From Cetorhinus maximus (Eukaryota), in assembly GCF_964194155.1 (NCBI RefSeq), contig NC_135897.1, positions 63,550,001 through 63,614,000 of the forward strand: DNA of 64,000 nt. The letters are read 5' to 3'. The first letter of the stretch is position 1. Every line of letters begins with the position of its first letter. This document shows positions 34,286-58,414 of this stretch, in pieces. Below the pieces are notes generated by a model. That model was not told the origin of the DNA, searched no databases, and saw nothing but the letters and a program-made list of their open reading frames with translations. Position numbers and translations under genes: made by a program.

Positions 34286-34502
34286 AACAAGCTGAAGTCC
34301 TCACAGAAGGATAAAGTGCGTCAGTTTATGGTCTTCACACAGTCCAGTGAGAAAACTGCAGTATGTTGTTTATCGCAGAATGACTGGAAGTTAGATGTTG
34401 CTACAGACAATTTTTTTCAAAATCCAGAACTTTATGTTCGTGAAAGTCTGAAAGGTTCATTGGATAGAAAGAGATTAGAACAATTATACCATAGATACCG
34501 AG
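34286..34502 (+). CDS. DCUN1D1: DCUN1D1 (DCN1-like protein 1) exon 2, UBA-like domain
   Basis: 217 bp, tatgcAG...GAG|[78 protein letters not shown] has DCUN1D1-type rather than DCUN1D2-type residues. Confidence 0.97.
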
Positions 34503-48900: not shown

Positions 48901-49804
48901 GGGTTATCAGTAAAATGTGATTTAAGAAAGTATAGGAAGTTAAGTGTGACATTTCTGGGAAGCGTTTCATATACTCAACATTCTTAATATATTCTAAATG
49001 AGTCAAAAGGAAGTTTGGGCATTCTTACTAAAACTTGCATTAGGTCCTAGCAATTATGTAATACTTTAGACAAAAATAGCTACACCACTCTAGCCAAAGA
49101 TGTGACAGATTCCTTTGAGTATCATTACAATACCCATTAGATTTTTCTAGACTGGGGAATGCCCAGCTCCAGCAAATTCTGGGCCTATATTCTAATTGCC
49201 CACAAAGTATTAAATTTGCTGCTGAGATAAAGTTATCACAAATTCTGTTACAGAATTTTGTAGCTCTATCTAAGTTGGATGCAGGTCTCATGTGCAACAG
49301 TCTGCATCTTGTTCCATTCCTCTGTCTTGGTTATATGTTGCAAGCTTTTCTCTAATGTAGCTGGTTGATACCAGCCTATGTGTAGCCTACTATTCAGTTA
49401 ATTCATCTAAACATAGCTTTTTGAATATTAAAACTATGAAATGGTAGCTAGTGATGTCCTGTTAGAATGACTACCATTTATGCAGAATGTTTAATTTGAT
49501 TACGTGAGATTGTATAAAAGATAAAAATTTGCAGGGCATAATGTTCAGATGGGAAATTTGGAGACCCAGTACAATGATAGATGCATAGAAAAATTCAACA
49601 CCAATCAGCATAAAGTAACACAGGGATAGAACATCAACAGATGGCATAGGAGGAAAGAGTGAGAGTAATTAATTAATGGCAATTAAAGGTTGCTAAAGGA
49701 AGAGGAATGTTTGGGTCTATAGGTATGAAATGTGCACAAAGTGGCAGACAAATGTGGAGTATTTCTTAGCTTGTGCTGGGGGTAGGTGTTATTATTGTTC
49801 CAGC

Positions 49805-50988
49805 TTTTTAAAAAAATTCATTCACGGGATGTGGGCATCGCTGGCCAGGCCAGCATTTATTGCCCATCCCTATTTGCCCTTGAGAAGGTGGTGGTGAGCT
49901 GCCTTCTTGAACCACTGCCGTCCCTGTGGTGTAGGTGCACCCACAGTGCTGTTAGGGAGGGAGTTCCAGGATTTTGACCCAACGACAGTGAAAGAATGGC
50001 GATATATTTCCAAGTCAGGATGGTCAGTGGCTTGGAGGGAATCTTGCAGGTGGTGGTGTTCCCATGTATCTGCTGCCCTTGTCCTTCTGCTGGTAGTGGT
50101 CATGTGTTTGGAAGGTGCTGTCTAAGGAGCCTTGATGAGTTTCTGCAGTGCATCTTGTAGATGGTACACACTGCTGCCACCCTTCTTTGGTGGTGGAGGG
50201 AGTGAATGTTTATGGAAGGAGTACCAGTCAAGCAGCCTGCTTTGTCCTGAAAGCTGTCAAGCTTCTTGAGTGTTGTTGGGTTGCACTCATCCAGACAAGT
50301 GGTGAGTATTCCATCACACTCCTGACTTGTGCCTTGTAAATGGTGCACAGGCTTTGGGGAGTCAGGAGGTGAGTTATTTGCCGCAGGACCCATAGCCTCT
50401 GACCTGCTCTTGTAGCCACAGTATTTATATGGCTAGTCCAGTTCAGTTTCTGGTCAATGGTAACTTGCAGGATGTTGATAATGGGGGATTCAGTGATGGT
50501 AATGCCATTGAATGTCAAGGGACGATGGTTAGATTCTCTCAAGGTGGAGATGGCCATTGCTTGGTACTTGTGTGGCACGAATGTTACTTGCCACTTGTTA
50601 ACCCAAGCCTGAATATTGTCCAGGTCTTGCTGCATCTGGACATGGACTGCTTCAGTATATGAGGAGTCACGAATGGTGCTGAACATTGTGCAATCGTCAG
50701 CGAACATCCCCACTTCTGACCTTATGATGGAAGGAAGGTCATTGATGAAGCAGCTGAAGAGAGTTGGACCTAGGACACTGCCCTGAGGAACTCCAACAGT
50801 GATATCCTGGAACTGAGATGATTTTCCTCCAACAATCACAACCACCTTCCTTTGTGCTAGTTATGACTCCAACCAGTGGAGAGTTTTCCCACTGATTCCC
50901 ATTGACTCCAGTTTTGCTAGGGCTCCTTGATGCCGCACTCAGTCAAATGCTGCCTTGATGTCAAGGGCAGTCACTCTCACCTCACCTT
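49805..50988 (-). mobile_element. CR1/L2-group LINE, 5'-truncated, with a well-preserved RT C-half
   Basis: ORF 50228-50845 GVPQGSVLGPTLFSCFINDLP...MFADDCT...IYKAQVRSVMEY. The same 3' end recurs at about 43730-43870 and 27810-28170. Confidence 0.9.
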
Positions 50989-51015
50989 TGTTTACGTTGC
51001 ATCACCAACGTCCGT

Positions 51016-51407
51016 TGAAAGGATGAGGGCTTACCCCAAAACGCCTTGAGAGTCGGATGTCTTGTTTAAGCTAGCGATTATTATTATGAGCATGCAAGGA
51101 GAAGGCCCACTCTCACGAGTAGGGGTTTTACAACACGATGTATAAGCAGTTAATTTGTATTGTTACAAAAAGTTGACTTGACCAGCTGCCTCCTCTTTAA
51201 TTGGATCTTTTCACCTGTCTGTGTCTTTCCCTGTTCTCGTCTTTTCTTGATCATGTCTCCTCGTATGACTCTGTCTTCTCTCCTCATCTCATTTCCTCTT
51301 GATTAGATCTACTCTGCCTCACACACATTATACAAGATTTAACAGTTTTCAGTTTTCAGTCAAGTTACCCATGATTCCCCTATGCCATATGTCAATTCCC
51401 CCTGTCA
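51016..51407 (-). repeat. 3' LTR (392 bp)
   Basis: tgaaaggatgagg...ccccctgtca. Colinear with 55529-55934, including the block ttacaaaaagtt(g/c)acttgaccagctgcctcctctttaattggatcttttcacct. Confidence 0.9.
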
Positions 51408-51695
51408 GAGCGCCCCGTCTTGGCACTTGGCCAACATCTCTGGCCCAAGGAAGGCATTACCATAGAACCCACTGCCCATCGAATAATCCAGGGATCCTAC
51501 CGGTTTCGACGAGCCTCGAATCCTTACCGAGGATCCTCTTACAACCTCACCTGTGTCCTAGTGACCAGGCTTAGACTGTAATTGATACTTTGTATTATGC
51601 TAAGAATGTGCTGAAATAAATTATAACCCGGGTTAAACTTCTACTCAAGCTAAACTATAACCTGCTTGCAATCTCTGCTTAGGGTACACTAAGGA

Positions 51696-53382
51696 CTAAA
51701 CTGATCCTCCCCAGTAGGTGCTCCCACCTTTCAAAAGTTCTCTTTCTGTACCTTCCAGAACATTGACCAGTGACATTTTTTGCTGTCTCTTTAGTCTGCA
51801 CAAGAGACAAGTCATATACAGCAACATCACCAACTGGGCAACCACCAAAACGTGGGAGATAATCCGGATCCACAGATGGATCTGCACGTTGAGGTCCCGA
51901 TTCCAGAGGTCCTCCCACTAAGTGGTGTCGTCTATCTGCTCAATGTCCTTGCTCTTTTACTGCAGAGCATGGTATGTCTTATCCACCCTTTCAAGTGCCC
52001 CCCGTATTGCATCAAGGTGCTCAGGCAGTGTGGGTATTGGTAGGAGAATTGGCTAACATATTGTGCCAGGTTATCCTTCATGTTTCCCTCAACTTGCATA
52101 AAAACTTTCTCCTGCTTGTGGATGTCTACCAGTTCAACCCTTCCCATCCGAGCTGCACCAGGGGTGTAGACATTCGGTATGGTTGGTCAGTGGACATGGG
52201 TGATTCCCATGGCAGTATTCCTGTCATGATGTAGTGATACAATATCTCCTTTTGCCCAGATATGCTACTCGTGTTGGTTCCAATTCAGCTGCTATAGCTT
52301 CCATTGTACAATTAGCCATTGCTGTAAGTCCACAACTGGTCTCTGCCTTCTCGTATATTGGGTGGGGGCACACCACTGTGGAGGACCCTACACTGCACTC
52401 ACCTAAAGTGGTACTTATCATGCTTCCCCCTTTCTCTACTACGTATGATGACACAACACAGTGTCTTACATAATAATCCCCTCTAATTACTCCTATATTC
52501 TCTACTCTATACAAGGTTCTTCCTGGTGTTAATTCTGTCAAAAGCAGGATTGCTAAGACCATGCCGAACAACAATCCATTTCTTAACACATTCAGTATTT
52601 GCTGAATACACATAAATTAAACCCCTGAGCTGGCAGCCGGCTATGTTCGACCCTGCCTTTATAGACAGGTTGGTCAACTGTTTGTTTGTAATCCACTTGG
52701 GTAGTTCTCCCTCATGAATTTGCCTTAGATTACCCCATGTCTGTTCAAGCACCCATGACCCACAAGTACTACAGACATCATTTTGGGCTGTCTTACGTGA
52801 GGCATTATGGCCTTCATTAATCAATTCGTTAATGGTCTGAGTGTGACCCTCCAATACAGTTGCCTAGGCCTGGACTCCTTGCTCTTTTTAAAATATTTCT
52901 TTAAGTTGAATGCTTAATTTACAGACCTTATGGCCCACCAAGGCCAGATCAATCGAACTTACTGTTGAGGTTCCTGTATTAAACTGCACAGTAGCGTCAC
53001 TTACCAAGCTGCGCTTCCTCCACCCCTTTCTCTGGAGGTGGGGATCTCCCCTGCTTCTGCTACTGACCTGGACTGCTTGTTGCTTCAGCAGTGCTGTGTT
53101 AGTGCCCAAGTTTTAGTTGAGCACCAAATGGGTAAGCCTAACTCTGATGTTCAGTACTTTGGGTATCAGCTGGTGGTGTACATTGTCACATAATACCTTT
53201 GTTTTCTCTTACTAACACTAATCCGCTTGCTGGACCTGTTTCCAGTTCTGGGCAGAGTAGCACACTTCATTGGTCAGGTCCCGTAAGGGTTGTCTTTTGT
53301 TCCTTCCCGAACTACCTGGCATATGTGGATACTGTTGTAGCCAGTAGTCCAATGCATATCGCAATCTGTATCGGTCGCCCAT
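51696..53382 (-). pseudogene. env-like class I fusion glycoprotein (F/foamy/lokiretrovirus type), frameshifted
   Basis: Signal-peptide-like GRPIQIAICIGLLATTVSTYA, then GPASGLVL, and a basic cleavage site WRKR|SLV at about 53011. Cys-rich block YRVENIG...LGEC...VVCP...SCG...NCTMEA...YLGKRRYCITTS and C-terminal TM HVLVVAQLVMLLYMTCLLC. About 560 codons in total. Confidence 0.8.
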
Positions 53383-53454
53383 GATTCAACCTGTAACAAT
53401 ATTGTTAGTTTCTGGGATCCACCTTGATCTCCCTGTAGAGTAAACAAATCAGCC

Positions 53455-53910
53455 ATTAAATGGTTTTACTTGTGACCAGTGTTTCCATCCTCACCTACCC
53501 TTACGGTCCATACACACAAAGTGTCACTACTCATCATAATGTCATCGGGTTTGTTTCACCATGCTTGCCATCCTGGTTTCTCTAGTAACACTTTAAGGAT
53601 TACCTGACTGCCCCTCTCAGTATCTCCAGGTCTCCCTTGTCCCCGGTGGTCCTAATCAGGTCCGCCATATCTTGTTGCCTCCCCCTGTGCCTGGTCTACC
53701 CACGCATTTCCCTGCTGGATTGGGGTAATGATCTCCTAGAGAACTTTTAACTACTGCAACTTTCTTTGGTAGTCCTGCTGCCTCTACAAGGTTCCTAATT
53801 ATTTTTTTCTGTATCTGACCTCCTACCTGCTTCAGGCAATCATGTAATCATGCACTACCTACTACAGTCCAAATGCAGACCTACTTTCCATGTATATGTT
53901 GTAACTTTGG
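53455..53910 (-). pseudogene. pol remnants: retroviral-type RNase H fragment joined to integrase C-terminal module
   Basis: YNIYMESRSAFG..VVHDYM, LVEAAGLPKK/VAVVK and GNAWVDQA (compare NIYTDSRYAFG-VHD...LPK-VAV...GN-AD-A). Then GSQVILKV...KPGW...WKHWSQVKPF, resembling the GPY/F-type integrase CTD. Confidence 0.65.
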
Positions 53911-55508
53911 TACTAAAGTTTAGAACTTAAAAATTACTAGAGCTTCATCCAGAGTTGTGCCAAAGTGTTTTAGCTTTAGAGTTTCCCTGAAAGTCACTCT
54001 TACCCAGTAACTTAAATCTTTAAACCTAGTTAATTTCCCTCAACCCTGTGGCTTGCAGGATTTTAGATTAATTGTCATCTGTCTCCAAACTTCTGTTTCT
54101 CTTTTTTTTGAATTTAGATCACCCGCTGTTTCAGTCCTAAAATGTTTATTTCCAAGTTTCAATTAGTAACATTAAGAATATTAAGAATAAATTCCCTCTT
54201 TTTTTTGAGAACTTTGCAGGAAGTTTTTAACACAAGACCAATCCAATCCAACTCAGAATTAATTAGAATGAATTATAATTACTCCAAACATTTCAAAATA
54301 AAGTACTCCTCCCCTTAACCCTAATCATAAAGTTACACATTCACACATACAAACATCATGCATACAAAAAATAAATCCATACACACACAGCCAGAAAAGA
54401 GCAGCACGTGCTTTTAAAGGAAGGTAAACAGAAATAAATCAATTACGTCAACAATCCCAATTCTTCTTTCTTCGAATGTCTTTCAACAACTGTTATTGGA
54501 AATGACAGCAAAAAGTAAATTCTCTCAAACAGACAAACTCTCCAAGAGGTTATGTGTCAGCCTTTCAAGTCATTCCAATCACTCAAATTCTTATTTTTAT
54601 CATGATTAGTTTCTTCTTTTTTAGCTTACATCCACTTGATGCAACTTTGCTCAGAGACATTTCACACACATTTGCTATTCAACAGCTTCCAAACGCACAG
54701 AGACCAAATGTCAACATAGACTTACACGCACACACAAGTTTTCCTTCTTTTGTCCCTCCAACAGCATTCTAGACTACTATGGTACTTCCAATGTAATTTC
54801 TACTAAACTTTCCCTGACTGCTCTCTGGGTTTGTTTTTACCACCAATTCTTTATTGGCCTGGTCTTGTTCCTGAACTCGCTGGCAGAATCCCAAATAAGA
54901 ATTGATTATGTTCATAATTGCTTTATCCTTCCTATCTTTCATTTGGCCCTTACATCATTCTCCTTGTGCTTCTGGTGGGTCATTAAATTTTCATCCATCT
55001 TTTTTCCTGATCAGATTCTCATATTTATCTGCTATAAACCTGGTAAGGAACCCCTCTGGTCTCCAATCCAGGCTTTTCAGCACTATCGGTCATTTTGCCA
55101 GAGTATTGTCTGCCTGAACAGTGTTGACCTACAGGATACCCTTTAAATCCCCTGTGCAGCTCGATCTCTTGTGAAGGTCTGCTTTGCGGTCTCTCTCAGT
55201 GCGGTCTCCTGCGTGGTAACAGCTTTCGGGATACCTCCCAAACCCCCCTCGTGGCTTCACCTACTATCTGGCTTTGTGTTGTGGCTTTCTCAGCATGGCT
55301 GTCTGTCTGGCCCTCTCAACTTGCTACCTTCTACCCTGGCACTTGCTTTGATTGCTCGACACTCGAGTCTCCAGGTGTTGGTTGTTTGATACCCACTTAA
55401 GTTGCCAGTCCTGCGACTGCATGGTAGATCTTTCCTAACTATGGGTGGTAAAATAAAAGATACTCACCCCTTGGTCAGTTCCTCACTGTCGTGGTCCAGA
55501 TGTGCCAT

Positions 55509-55526
55509 ATCCCATCCTCGTCGCTA
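55509..55526 (-). promoter_or_regulatory. Primer-binding site, tRNA-Ser(GCT)
   Basis: The + strand ATCCCATCCTCGTCGCTA matches the 3' 18 nt of vertebrate tRNA-Ser(GCT) (ATCCCATCCTCGTCGCCA) with one mismatch, 2 bp from the 5' LTR. Confidence 0.85.
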
Positions 55527-55528
55527 TA

Positions 55529-55934
55529 TGAAAGGGTGAGGACTCGCCTTGGTACCCAAAAACAGCTTGCAAGTTGGATGTCTTGTTCAAGCGAGTGATC
55601 TTTATTACAAGCATGCAAGGAGAAGCTCCGCTGTCACGGATAGGGGTTCTATAGTTTAAGCAGTCAATTTATACTGTTACAAAAAGTTCACTTGACCAGC
55701 TGCCTCCTCTTTAATTGGATCTTTTCACCTAACGCTGCCTCTTTCTCTGATCTCGTATTTTCTTAATCATGTTTCCTCATATGGCTCTGTCTCCTCCCCT
55801 GATCTTGTTTCCTCTTGATTAGATCTTCTCATATGACACTCTGCCTCATAGACATTATACAAGTTTTAGCAGTTTTCAGTTTTAAATCAAGTATCCCATG
55901 ATTCCCATATGCCATACATCAATCTCCCCTTTCA
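55529..55934 (-). repeat. 5' LTR (406 bp)
   Basis: tgaaagggtgagg...cccctttca with inverted termini. Minus-strand AATAAA at about 55601-55606. Confidence 0.9.
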
Positions 55935-56639
55935 CTGTAAAGGCACTGGAGAGTTTCTTTAGTGTTTTTTTTATTGGGAATTCCTTGGTGGTGTTTGTTT
56001 ATTCCTATCTGGGCCCAAATTAAGTTTCGGCATTGATAGGAAACCAGTTTTTTTTTGCACTCACTGCAGAATAATTGAACCCCACAAAAAATTTGTTTTT
56101 AAAATTATTTCCAAGGAACCTGTTAGCTTGCCTGTGAATGCTTTAAGCTTCGTTTTAAATTTGTAATGCTGCCAAGGAGCTGACTTCAGACTTCCCAATA
56201 TTTAATCGGAGGAAATTTCTGCTTATCATAAGGAAATGTTAGGAAAGATGATTAAAAGCTCAGTTTTAGAATTTAAGCCATGCTTTAGAGGAGGAGAAGA
56301 GGGAGGCAAAGAAGTTTTTGGGACAGGAATTTTAAAAAAAATTGATTATGAAGAGCTTTAAGATGTTTGAGACATGTAGGCTACTGACTCCATACCTCTC
56401 CTTGACAACAATCCGAGGCTGAACCAGTCTATCCACAACCTGGGTGTCATATTTGACCCCGAGATGAGCTTCTGACCTCTTATTTGTGCCATCATTAAGA
56501 TTGCCTATTTCCACTGCTGTAACATTGTCCAATTTCACCCCGTCTTGGCTCATCTGTTGCTGAAATTTGTTATTAAGGTGCTATATAAATATAGGTTACA
56601 TAAATGTAAGTCGTTTGTTTTGCTGGCGGTCGCTGAGGG

Positions 56640-56969: not shown

Positions 56970-57138
56970 ATCCGCAAGATGAAAATAAAATAGGAATAGA
57001 CGGTATTCAGCAGTTCTGTGATGATTTAGGATTGGATCCAGCCAGTATCAGTGTACTGGTCGTTGCATGGAAATTTCGAGCAGCCACACAGTGTGAATTC
57101 TCAAAACAAGAATTCATAGATGGTATGACAGAATTAGG
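56970..57138 (+). CDS. DCUN1D1: DCUN1D1 exon 3, start of the PONY/cullin-binding domain (gene continues beyond the right edge)
   Basis: 169 bp, cttttAG...GG|GTAAGT. (D)[56 protein letters not shown], in phase with exon 2. Confidence 0.97.
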
Positions 57139-58414
57139 GTAAGTAAAATAATACATTTGTACATGTCTAGAAATAGAAATTCATGTTTAATAAGCTTGTT
57201 TGTTTATTCACTATGAAACCCTTCAAATCCATGTTGCAGTTATATAGATTTTATAGTCCTAGTTTTCAAGAATTGGTTCTGTAGGTTGAAATCTTGGACT
57301 TCCCTTCTATTAAAGCAATTTTTACATTACAGGGTAACTTTAACAGCAAAGAGAGCAACAGAGACAGCAAAAGGCCATAGAAGAGTGTTGAAGCTCTGTT
57401 GCCCATTCCTGTATAGAGAAGGGATTTCACAGCTACATTTATACAGGGCTCCCCCAGATTGAAACACAAAGTTGAAACTATATATATATGCAAGCAGTAG
57501 TCACTCATACACGTAATTGTTTTGGACAATATTTGACTATGTTTGTTCTAATAATGGCAGCTGCTGAGCAAGTGCTGTACAGTGAACTGGTAGTGAAATT
57601 GCTTACATTCTGCATGGTGTGGGAATACTTCAGCCATTTGCATTAATCCCTTGTTTTGTGGCTTCTCTATTTGATTTCAGCAAAGTTTCTACTTATGGTG
57701 AAGACAGGATTCTAGCTTGTATCACCCTTTGTCTGGAAAATAAATCATATTGGTCAGTTGTACGTGTTGCCTTTCAAGAATCATTTTTTTCAACAACATG
57801 GAAACCTTTTGATCTTAACACTTCAATTTGGTGCTTTTCAAACTTTAACTCCCGCAGTTTCTGTGATGGTTTGTCTTGAACTACCGTTTTTAAAAGGTAG
57901 ATTATAAAAAGCTGTAATAAAAAATACTATCTGTTTAAACAGGTTCTTCCCTTCAGAATTACTCAATCTTTTAGTAAAAGTGACAAATAATATTCTCTTA
58001 CTATAATGTGTTATTCCTTCCAATGTTTCTCAACCCCTTTGTGGTTGACCACCGCACCATACTCCATTACCTCTCTTTCACTTGTCTATCTTGGTGAGAC
58101 TGTCTTGCTTGGTTTAACCCGAGTTACCCAATTGTACCCAGAGCAGTGGCTTCTCTTTGCACCCCTATACCCTCACCTGCAGTGTCCATCAAGAATTATC
58201 CCTGCCCACCCCCCTTTCCTATCTGTTACATCAGCTGAAGACATGGGGTCAGTTTCCATGTGTGCTCCAATGATGGCCAGCTCTAACTCTTCACAACTTT
58301 TCTCACCCCTCCACTATCTCTGATGTTGGGCTGCTTGTCCAGCTTTCAGTCTTGGATAAGCCGCAATTTCATTCAGCTAAGCTTTGGGAAAGCTCAAGTC
58401 ATTGTCTTTGGCTC

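Follow-up and report, generated by a model that had tools for sequence, protein, structure and literature searches.

Orthoretroviral envelope (Env) proteins are treated as class Ia fusogens, unrelated to F proteins (PMC11468914), and independent Env origins have been preferred for the lokiretroviruses and the canonical retroviruses (PMC9040795). The lokiretroviruses (lokiorterviruses; PMC7947760, PMC9040795) carry an F-like Env, and the Env of foamy viruses (PDB 8rm0, 8rm1; PMC11468914) has a class Ib core fold. Among the canonical retroviruses, the snakehead retrovirus (SnRV) clade (clade Huo / class III) includes the elephant shark CmiERV lineage I, and SnRV-like endogenous retroviruses (ERVs) of cartilaginous fish are already in print, having been reported with an Env in Callorhinchus (PMC4422223). 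SnRV itself has an Env tail of 136 residues and 3' accessory ORFs (PMC12193657). The long tail and accessory ORFs are a feature of this one virus, not of its clade.

Here I describe an ERV copy, broken and polymerase-less, on the minus strand of a 64-kb stretch of Cetorhinus maximus DNA (hereafter the window), at positions 51016..55934. It belongs to a family of canonical retroviruses that is probably SnRV-like (class III) and equipped with a class Ib fusogen; within this family the window copy is a non-autonomous member, likely copied in trans.

Anatomy of the provirus

The provirus is an antisense insertion within an intron of a DCN1-like gene, and its LTRs and internal features all lie on the minus strand. 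Comparison of the LTRs delimits a 5' LTR of 406 bp (55529..55934; TG...CA) and a 3' LTR of 392 bp (51016..51407), which are identical at 326 of 384 aligned bases (85%, K2P 0.17); the LTR has 41 matches in the genome, from 40 of 68 scored candidates. The primer-binding site (PBS), read from the sequence at 55509..55526, is of the tRNA-Ser type. It fits the 3' end of tRNA-Ser(GCT) at 17 of 18 bases, and three Ser-type variants are found among relatives. A degenerate polypurine tract (51408..51425) was assigned from its position and by comparison with relatives. The preliminary description had reported a 4-bp target site duplication (TSD). Its length stands, and 4-bp TSDs were found in about ten relatives, and the repeat is near-perfect: the left copy (51012..51015) reads CCGT and the right copy (55935..55938) CTGT, agreeing at 3 of 4 positions and differing by one transition.

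Downstream of the PBS, a leader (55075..55508), with stretches 72–85% identical in subfamily copies, likely holds a packaging signal, judging from its position. It is followed by a decayed gag N-terminus (54781..55071), recognised by tblastn to the P0001 Gag N-terminus (37%, E 9e-8) and from copies in the same genome. Next is a non-coding, AT-rich segment (53910..54780), common to the subfamily and devoid of codon periodicity, which occupies the place of most of gag, PR and RT. Neither the gag remnant nor the AT-rich segment featured in the preliminary description. Two C-terminal fragments come next, one of RNase H (53700..53909; tblastn to P0002/P0003, L021 and L090) and one of integrase (53445..53645), which matches full-length relatives, the integrase core being deleted; the equivalent stretch of the relative L021 gives a weak PF18697 match (E 0.14). 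The last gene is a broken F-type env of ~560 codons (51696..53385), 45–48% identical to the env core that L021 naturally carries. Pfam searches on 10 window fragments returned no relevant family. The LTR alignment and tblastn bear out the organization first read from the letters, of a provirus with LTRs, a Ser-type PBS, C-terminal remnants of RNase H and integrase, and env. The copy is a dead insertion, and the locus itself is ordinary.

A non-autonomous subfamily

The provirus belongs to a non-autonomous subfamily lacking PR and RT. No PR or RT match was found beside the shared internal segment in any of 28 related loci, and in 20 of these the segment abuts RNase H or is separated from it by no more than 250 bp. 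Within the genome, env synonymous divergence is ~0.9–1.1, against ~25% mismatches in the shared internal segment, a disparity that points to recombination. The dN/dS of env lies at 0.23–0.32 for 10 of the 13 relatives compared and at 0.11 for another; one comparison gave no value, and the nearest copy stands at 0.72. Purifying selection as proof of a working Env in defective copies was rejected, given this last value, and recombination with helpers explains the pattern.

With PR and RT lost, copying was likely carried out in trans by autonomous SnRV-like relatives. LTR-driven RNA would be packaged by helper Gag-Pol, its reverse transcription would be primed with tRNA-Ser, and integration would generate the 4-bp duplication.

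Env of the window copy and its homologues

The window env encodes, in order, a hydrophobic leader, a short N-subunit, the decayed remains of a basic cleavage motif (53011-53022), heptads, a Cys-rich beta region and a TM (~51863-51798); it also contains the Cys-rich YRVENIG block, and is interrupted by several frame changes and stops. These reading frames agree with the ~560-codon env initially proposed, with its leader, short N-subunit, cleavage site, long Cys-rich C-subunit and TM. The reported lack of CX6CC and immunosuppressive motifs was likewise confirmed, neither CX6CC nor an ISD-like motif being found in the three minus frames of the window. In the Env alignment, CX6CC occurs in one of 114 rows, where it is located in the membrane anchor, and ISD-like matches in none. 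The combination that marks a gamma-type Env, CX6CC with an immunosuppressive domain in TM, was not found.

The env family is represented by at least 150 matches in the 4-Gb genome of the host itself, and homologues occur in at least six shark genera and three frogs. Unbroken homologues are annotated in the bamboo shark Chiloscyllium (GCC29952.1) and in the frogs Pelodytes (KAM8960540.1), Mantella (KAM5193609.1) and Xenopus (XP_031752662.1). Looking up env through a word index came back blank, due to index limits, whereas a full HMMER scan gave 50 homologues. Misaligned env fragments were removed before alignment (17 of 60 for alignment A2, and 14 of 93 for A4). Autonomous relatives possess a variable N-terminal Env module of ~170 aa, on a Pro/Thr-rich linker, that is absent from the window Env, and for which an Atlas search returned no usable match. 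The start of the Env core is ~80 residues from the cleavage site, and the cytoplasmic tail of the family is about 20–40 aa long.

Predicted fold of the Env core

The sequence used for structure prediction is the unbroken natural env core of L021, and not the broken env of the window. The resulting model has a pLDDT of 70 and a pTM of 0.54; an earlier, shallower env model (pLDDT 46) gave only weak matches. Against the PDB, the top Foldseek matches of the env-core model are all RSV or paramyxovirus F proteins (best E 3e-11, TM 0.41), and the 10 chains with a VIA Z of at least 8 consist of nine F proteins and the foamy Env 8rm0 (Z 8.3, 267 aligned, rmsd 6.5), the alignment with F and foamy Env running across residues 5–400. 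Matches in BFVD include baculovirus F, lispivirus glycoproteins, WEHV-1, WDSV and feline foamy Env; SnRV Env was not among the named matches, and the second-ranked one (A0A384ZVF2, 928 aa) is nameless. A published account of the SnRV Env fold was not found either. For the first Atlas match (0.94), PF00523 is present in 21% of members. PF00523 also matched two subfamily fragments at E 7e-5 and 2e-4, weaker than its curated cut-off, while sequence and profile searches of the PDB with env returned no F protein, only coiled-coil noise.

The F-type assignment holds because the core of this relative matches both RSV/paramyxovirus F and foamy Env. The prediction is thus of a class Ib fusogen that shares the paramyxovirus/pneumovirus F fold, and the alignment of the model with F and foamy Env agrees with nested domains I–III, contributed by both subunits. 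The proposal of an F-type, foamy-like envelope in an ERV of a probable cartilaginous fish is upheld by the Foldseek, VIA and BFVD matches, which include F proteins and foamy Env. The parallel first drawn between the YRVENIG block and the foamy TM likewise finds support in the fold comparison. The F2/F1 layout, heptads and Cys-rich beta domains resemble those of paramyxovirus and pneumovirus F (PF00523), baculovirus F and errantivirus F-type Env, which include the best structural matches; however, identity to F proteins is just 9–16%, and the shark Env is carried by a vertebrate retrovirus. The predicted structures of the epsilonretrovirus Envs of WDSV and WEHV-1 also match the env-core model (E 3e-9 and 4e-6), CX6CC and ISD being absent, but these proteins are far longer (1159–1317 aa), and the shark RT falls outside the epsilon/gamma-like clade.

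In such a protein, cleavage at the basic site would yield F2-like and F1-like subunits and expose the fusion peptide, and the two heptad regions would refold into a six-helix bundle. In autonomous copies, receptor binding was likely the task of the variable N-terminal module, and the subfamily of the window copy would carry the short Env without it.

Polymerase of the relatives and lineage placement

The RT-bearing relatives L068, L091 and L166 have a PQGFH motif in RT, part of the pattern PQGFH..P.IFH held in common with the SnRV clade. In the alignments supplementing the loki paper, all three occurrences of PQGFH are SnRV, and PFGY occurs 92 times, the 20 displayed being all loki-type Pol. 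Since the RT of the relatives carries the PQG motif instead of PFGY, the lokiretrovirus membership suggested at the outset is not supported. By hand count over 195 columns, the L091 RT shares 87 identities with SnRV, 78 with Loki-Lca and 69 with FFV; SnRV, which also has an aquatic host, is highest, by a small margin (45% against 40% for loki). Scores of RTs in the PDB are 216 bits for the MLV type, 159 for foamy and 115 for Ty3.

In RT trees, where SnRV, ERV-L, loki and foamy viruses are not represented by any named sequence, the nearest autonomous lineage groups with further shark RTs, together with one Pimephales Pol (99/99). The shark RTs sit in a retrovirus-like clade (100/99), separate from Gypsy-like rows, and are excluded from a clade with Gag_p30- and TLV_coat-bearing rows (100/100), the class labels being inferred from Pfam domains. 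A Gypsy or epsilon RT in the relatives, which the preliminary description regarded as counter-evidence, was not found: these RTs are apart from the Gypsy-like rows and outside the class I clade. Close Pol homologues have a tether and second RNase H (PF17919/PF17917 and PF00075), in a domain order read in L034, L166 and L167, a feature common to all retroviruses. A zf-CCHC was detected in all three scanned Gag frames, with two in L092. IMG/VR scans with the RT gave no match. The window copy differs from the SnRV clade in being non-autonomous.

Alternative placements

That the family extends the lokiretroviruses to cartilaginous fish is very improbable. Its Env does combine what is used to recognise a loki Env, namely a PF00523-like fold (as predicted), signal peptide, RXKR site, fusion peptide, coiled coil and TM; core length is similar, motifs are colinear, tether and RNase H are also alike, and RT identity to Loki-Lca is 40% by hand count. 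However, every RT-bearing relative read has PQGFH rather than PFGY, the Chondrichthyes row is 0 in the supplement of the loki screen, and no smc ORF was seen in the shark family, whose autonomous copies extend Env by an N-terminal module. A foamy-like ERV of cartilaginous fish is barely credible, for all that the Env fold (Z 8.3) and the 4-bp TSD are in common: the Gag has CCHC zinc knuckles, unlike foamy viruses, RT scores are lower for foamy than for MLV, the fish-foamy NSPIQAV motif is absent, and env ends ~290 nt from the 3' LTR. The N-subunit also lacks a large inserted domain; foamy Env has its receptor-binding domain inserted between the subunits, whereas the extra module of the shark family is N-terminal, as in the coronavirus spike. 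The Gag of Spumaretrovirinae is not known to carry Cys-His boxes.

Late capture of the Env from a lokiretrovirus or mononegavirus via recombination, as opposed to inheritance from a retroviral ancestor, is on the unlikely side. The env core is, by eye, colinear with loki Env motifs and of equal length, anamniote ERVs often exchange their env (10.1101/2021.11.23.469661), and the excess of env synonymous divergence over that of the shared internal segment points to recombination. F-type matches were nevertheless also obtained from foamy and two epsilonretrovirus Envs, so that capture would be required several times, and no loki or viral F protein was recognised among 20 profile matches looked up by name. 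It is unlikely that the shark, cyprinid and frog members make up a deep canonical-retrovirus lineage of their own, with the same F-type Env and only superficially SnRV-like. The RTs do group apart in a starred clade shared with Heterodontus, Mustelus-cluster and Pimephales Pols, RT identity to SnRV is just 45% by hand count, and the family, with its Ser PBS, a pair of zinc knuckles in Gag, a short Env tail and no room for accessory ORFs, differs from SnRV with its long tail and accessory ORFs (PMC12193657). Yet the exact PQGFH is shared with SnRV alone among the supplement references, and SnRV-clade ERVs are known in a chimaera (PMC4422223). An SnRV-like lineage with a class Ib fusogen is the reading retained here.

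Implications for retroviral envelopes

In the literature searched, no F-type Env on SnRV-like shark ERVs was found. If such an Env goes with an SnRV-group polymerase, the envelope type is spread more widely among retroviruses than published schemes assume, and is likely older. I tentatively suggest that the F-type Env may be the ancestral retroviral envelope, surviving in loki, foamy, epsilon and the SnRV-like shark/frog lineage with interchangeable, partly Ig-like N-terminal modules, and that gamma- and beta-type Envs could be later replacements. A canonical-type RT in cis with a predicted F-fold Env is a direct counter-example to the schemes of PMC11468914 and PMC9040795, and the four scenarios of PMC7947760 become testable with trees and structures. 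The family also provides a natural series, in which one fusion core occurs with and without different N-terminal modules.

Structure and age of the provirus

The provirus sits on the minus strand, antisense between two plus-strand exons of a DCN1-like gene (DCN1-like protein 1/2), the first at 34313–34450, recognised by short motifs, and the second at 56970–57139 (E 3e-33). A LINE-type RT fragment (PF00078, E 4e-14; 49800–50990) adjoins its left end. Pairwise alignment of the 5′ and 3′ LTRs (55529–55934 and 51016–51407) gives 326 identical bases out of 384 (K2P 0.17), and the target site duplication is CCGT/CTGT; some ten relatives whose LTR pairs are clean also have 4-bp duplications. The 18-nt primer-binding site fits the expected end of tRNA-Ser. 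Between the LTRs, the N-terminus of gag survives as a remnant, alongside an AT-rich segment devoid of codon periodicity, C-terminal fragments of RNase H and of integrase, and a broken env that spans ∼560 codons. The structure proposed in the preliminary description is confirmed, as is its account of env, where neither a CX6CC nor an immunosuppressive (ISD) motif was found. The provirus is dead, and as an insertion it is ordinary. Using the two rates of PMC4422223 (2.2e-9 and 2.2e-10 per site per year), its LTRs are ∼40 to 390 million years old, a span so wide that the provirus is datable only as old.

A non-autonomous subfamily

Searching the 4.0 Gb genome with an env fragment identified at least 150 matches (150 of 150 scored, from 1610 candidates), and a second env family, 30% identical, gave 215. 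In natural copies (loci L021, L034, L091 and L166), the order between the LTRs is gag-PR-RT-tether-RNase H-IN-env. I fetched 28 loci carrying the internal AT-rich segment, drawn from 52 segment matches plus LTR and env searches, and none has a PR or RT match (E 1e-4). In 13 of these the segment meets RNase H where it does in the window, in seven more it does so within 250 bp, and the remaining eight have no adjacent RNase H match. The subfamily is non-autonomous; many of its loci retain the integrase core, a further part missing from the window copy. Ten loci share the short env start of the window copy, with a leader ∼30 residues from the core, whereas in autonomous copies a module of ∼170 residues and a linker rich in Pro and Thr precede this core. 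From established retrovirus biology, such elements would be packaged and reverse transcribed in trans, with Ser priming; the anatomy, the shared PR-RT loss, the homology and the RT motif are the observed parts of this mechanism.

Other groups of copies were seen. In five loci with the window's LTR type (L046, L048, L049, L065 and L096), env matches jump from core positions ∼30–85 to ∼204, apparently a common loss of the cleavage and fusion-peptide region. Copies of 6.9–7.1 kb with the L021 LTR type, including L023, L029 and L033, show no long pol frame between gag and env, and are possibly another non-autonomous subfamily. Dozens of near-identical broken copies are clustered (G000 contigs C29 and C30, many small contigs, and C22:3.4–5.4 Mb), and were probably amplified within large segmental or tandem duplications.

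Placement of the polymerase

The closest named Pol and Env homologues are from sharks, which, together with the genome size, points to a cartilaginous fish as the probable host. The autonomous lineage nearest to the window is that of L166 and L167 (env DNA identity is 71–76% for L034 and L167). RT frames of the relatives score 216 bits against MLV-type RT, 159 against foamy and 115 against Ty3. Two RT trees were built (54 and 44 rows, with redundant bird sequences and part of the Gypsy-like ones omitted); they hold no named lokiretrovirus, foamy, ERV-L or snakehead retrovirus (SnRV) row, and the outgroup does not fall cleanly on one side of a branch. RTs from this genome, L166 and L167 among them, cluster there with those of Heterodontus, Pimephales and a protein of a Mustelus cluster (99/99). 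The cluster lies within a retrovirus-like clade (100/99) and apart from the rows that bear Gag_p30/TLV_coat, which form a clade of their own.

Lokiretroviruses are defined by RT position, with an F-like Env, and their Chondrichthyes row reads 0 in PMC7947760. In its supplement, PFGY occurs at least 92 times, the 20 listed occurrences all being in loki-type Pols, and PQGFH at least three times, each of these in SnRV. The relatives of the window have PQGFH, not PFGY, and the lokiretrovirus relationship offered as one option in the preliminary description is not supported by this RT test. A hand count over 195 RT columns gives 87 identities to SnRV, 78 to Loki-Lca and 69 to the foamy reference FFV. 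The CCHC knuckles of the family's Gag and the Env layout argue against foamy virus membership. From the motif, the hand count, the trees (themselves lacking an SnRV row) and the knuckles, the best reading is that the family would work like a canonical retrovirus, on the SnRV/class III side.

Fold and constraint of the envelope

The naturally unbroken env core of L021, 45–48% identical to the window env, was modelled as a stand-in. An earlier model from 44 rows was poor; that from 114 alignment rows has pLDDT 70 and pTM 0.54. Every PDB match that Foldseek lists is an F protein of RSV or a paramyxovirus (best E 3e-11, TM 0.41). In a VIA-align comparison with 48,161 chains, ten reached Z ≥ 8: nine are F proteins and the tenth is foamy Env in its prefusion form (Z 8.3 over 267 aligned residues, rmsd 6.5); the rmsd values are high, as expected because pre- and post-fusion states are compared. 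Matches in BFVD include F-type proteins of lispiviruses and baculoviruses, along with the Envs of feline foamy virus, WEHV-1 and WDSV. An Atlas match and weak PF00523 matches point the same way; PDB sequence searches with env found no F protein. Judged by eye, the core runs colinear with loki Env sequences given in the PMC7947760 supplement. The Env of this family is therefore predicted to have the class Ib F-fold, so that the F-type part of the preliminary interpretation stands.

Two side matches were observed. The walleye epsilonretrovirus Envs (BFVD Q9WHI8 and A4GTG3) match the model at E 3e-9 and 4e-6, and the literature search found no published statement of their F-type likeness. A fish filovirus (Wenling thamnaconus) glycoprotein ranks third among the BFVD matches (A0A2P1GML9, E 2e-12).

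By analogy with F proteins, such an Env would be cleaved at its basic site, and would insert its fusion peptide before heptad collapse, while the N-terminal module may bind the receptor. The basic motif is kept in 16 of the 30 own-genome rows spanning the site. The window env has a dN/dS of 0.23–0.32 against ten of 13 relatives, which could be taken as proof of a working short Env in defective copies. I reject this: dN/dS is 0.72 against the nearest copy, and env is more diverged at synonymous sites than the shared AT-rich segment, so the constraint probably dates from helper lineages, with recombination.

Distribution and implications

An env profile of 44 natural fragments, searched against 1.84 billion representatives, identified 50 homologues. 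Names were looked up for 20 (four clusters had none), and those named come from sharks (Chiloscyllium, Mustelus, Scyliorhinus, Pristiophorus, Heterodontus, Heptranchias and Rhincodon) and frogs (Pelodytes, Mantella and Xenopus). Four annotated full-length homologues with differing N-terminal modules are candidates for recent invasion or co-option: P0127 (Chiloscyllium punctatum; labelled Ig-like by UniRef), P0133 (Pelodytes), P0155 (Mantella; a cluster of 16 members) and P0148 (weak V-set match, E 0.045). Three other annotated proteins (P0128, P0138 and P0153) join env fragments to F-box, cadherin or Niban-like parts, and are either gene-model artefacts or exonisation.

SnRV-like shark ERVs are already known. 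PMC4422223 describes CmiERV lineage I as SnRV-like, PMC6001957 reports clade Huo from every major group of vertebrates, and PMC11089739 counts 2843 clade III RT loci in six chondrichthyan genomes. Orthoretroviral Env is class Ia and foamy Env class Ib in PMC11468914, in whose searched passages neither loki nor snakehead nor epsilon retroviruses are named; the portion seen of 10.1101/2021.11.23.469661 deals with gamma-type Env only. Full-text searches of a largely open-access literature found no paper that ascribes an F-type Env to SnRV-like retroviruses or to epsilon retroviruses. Within the literature searched, what appears new is that a canonical-type RT is paired with a predicted class Ib F-fold Env whose N-terminal modules are exchangeable, in sharks and probably also in frogs. 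Independent Env origins are preferred in PMC9040795; I would put an ancestral F-type Env at slightly short of even chances. The pairing of this RT with an F-fold Env bears on the origin of retroviral Env.
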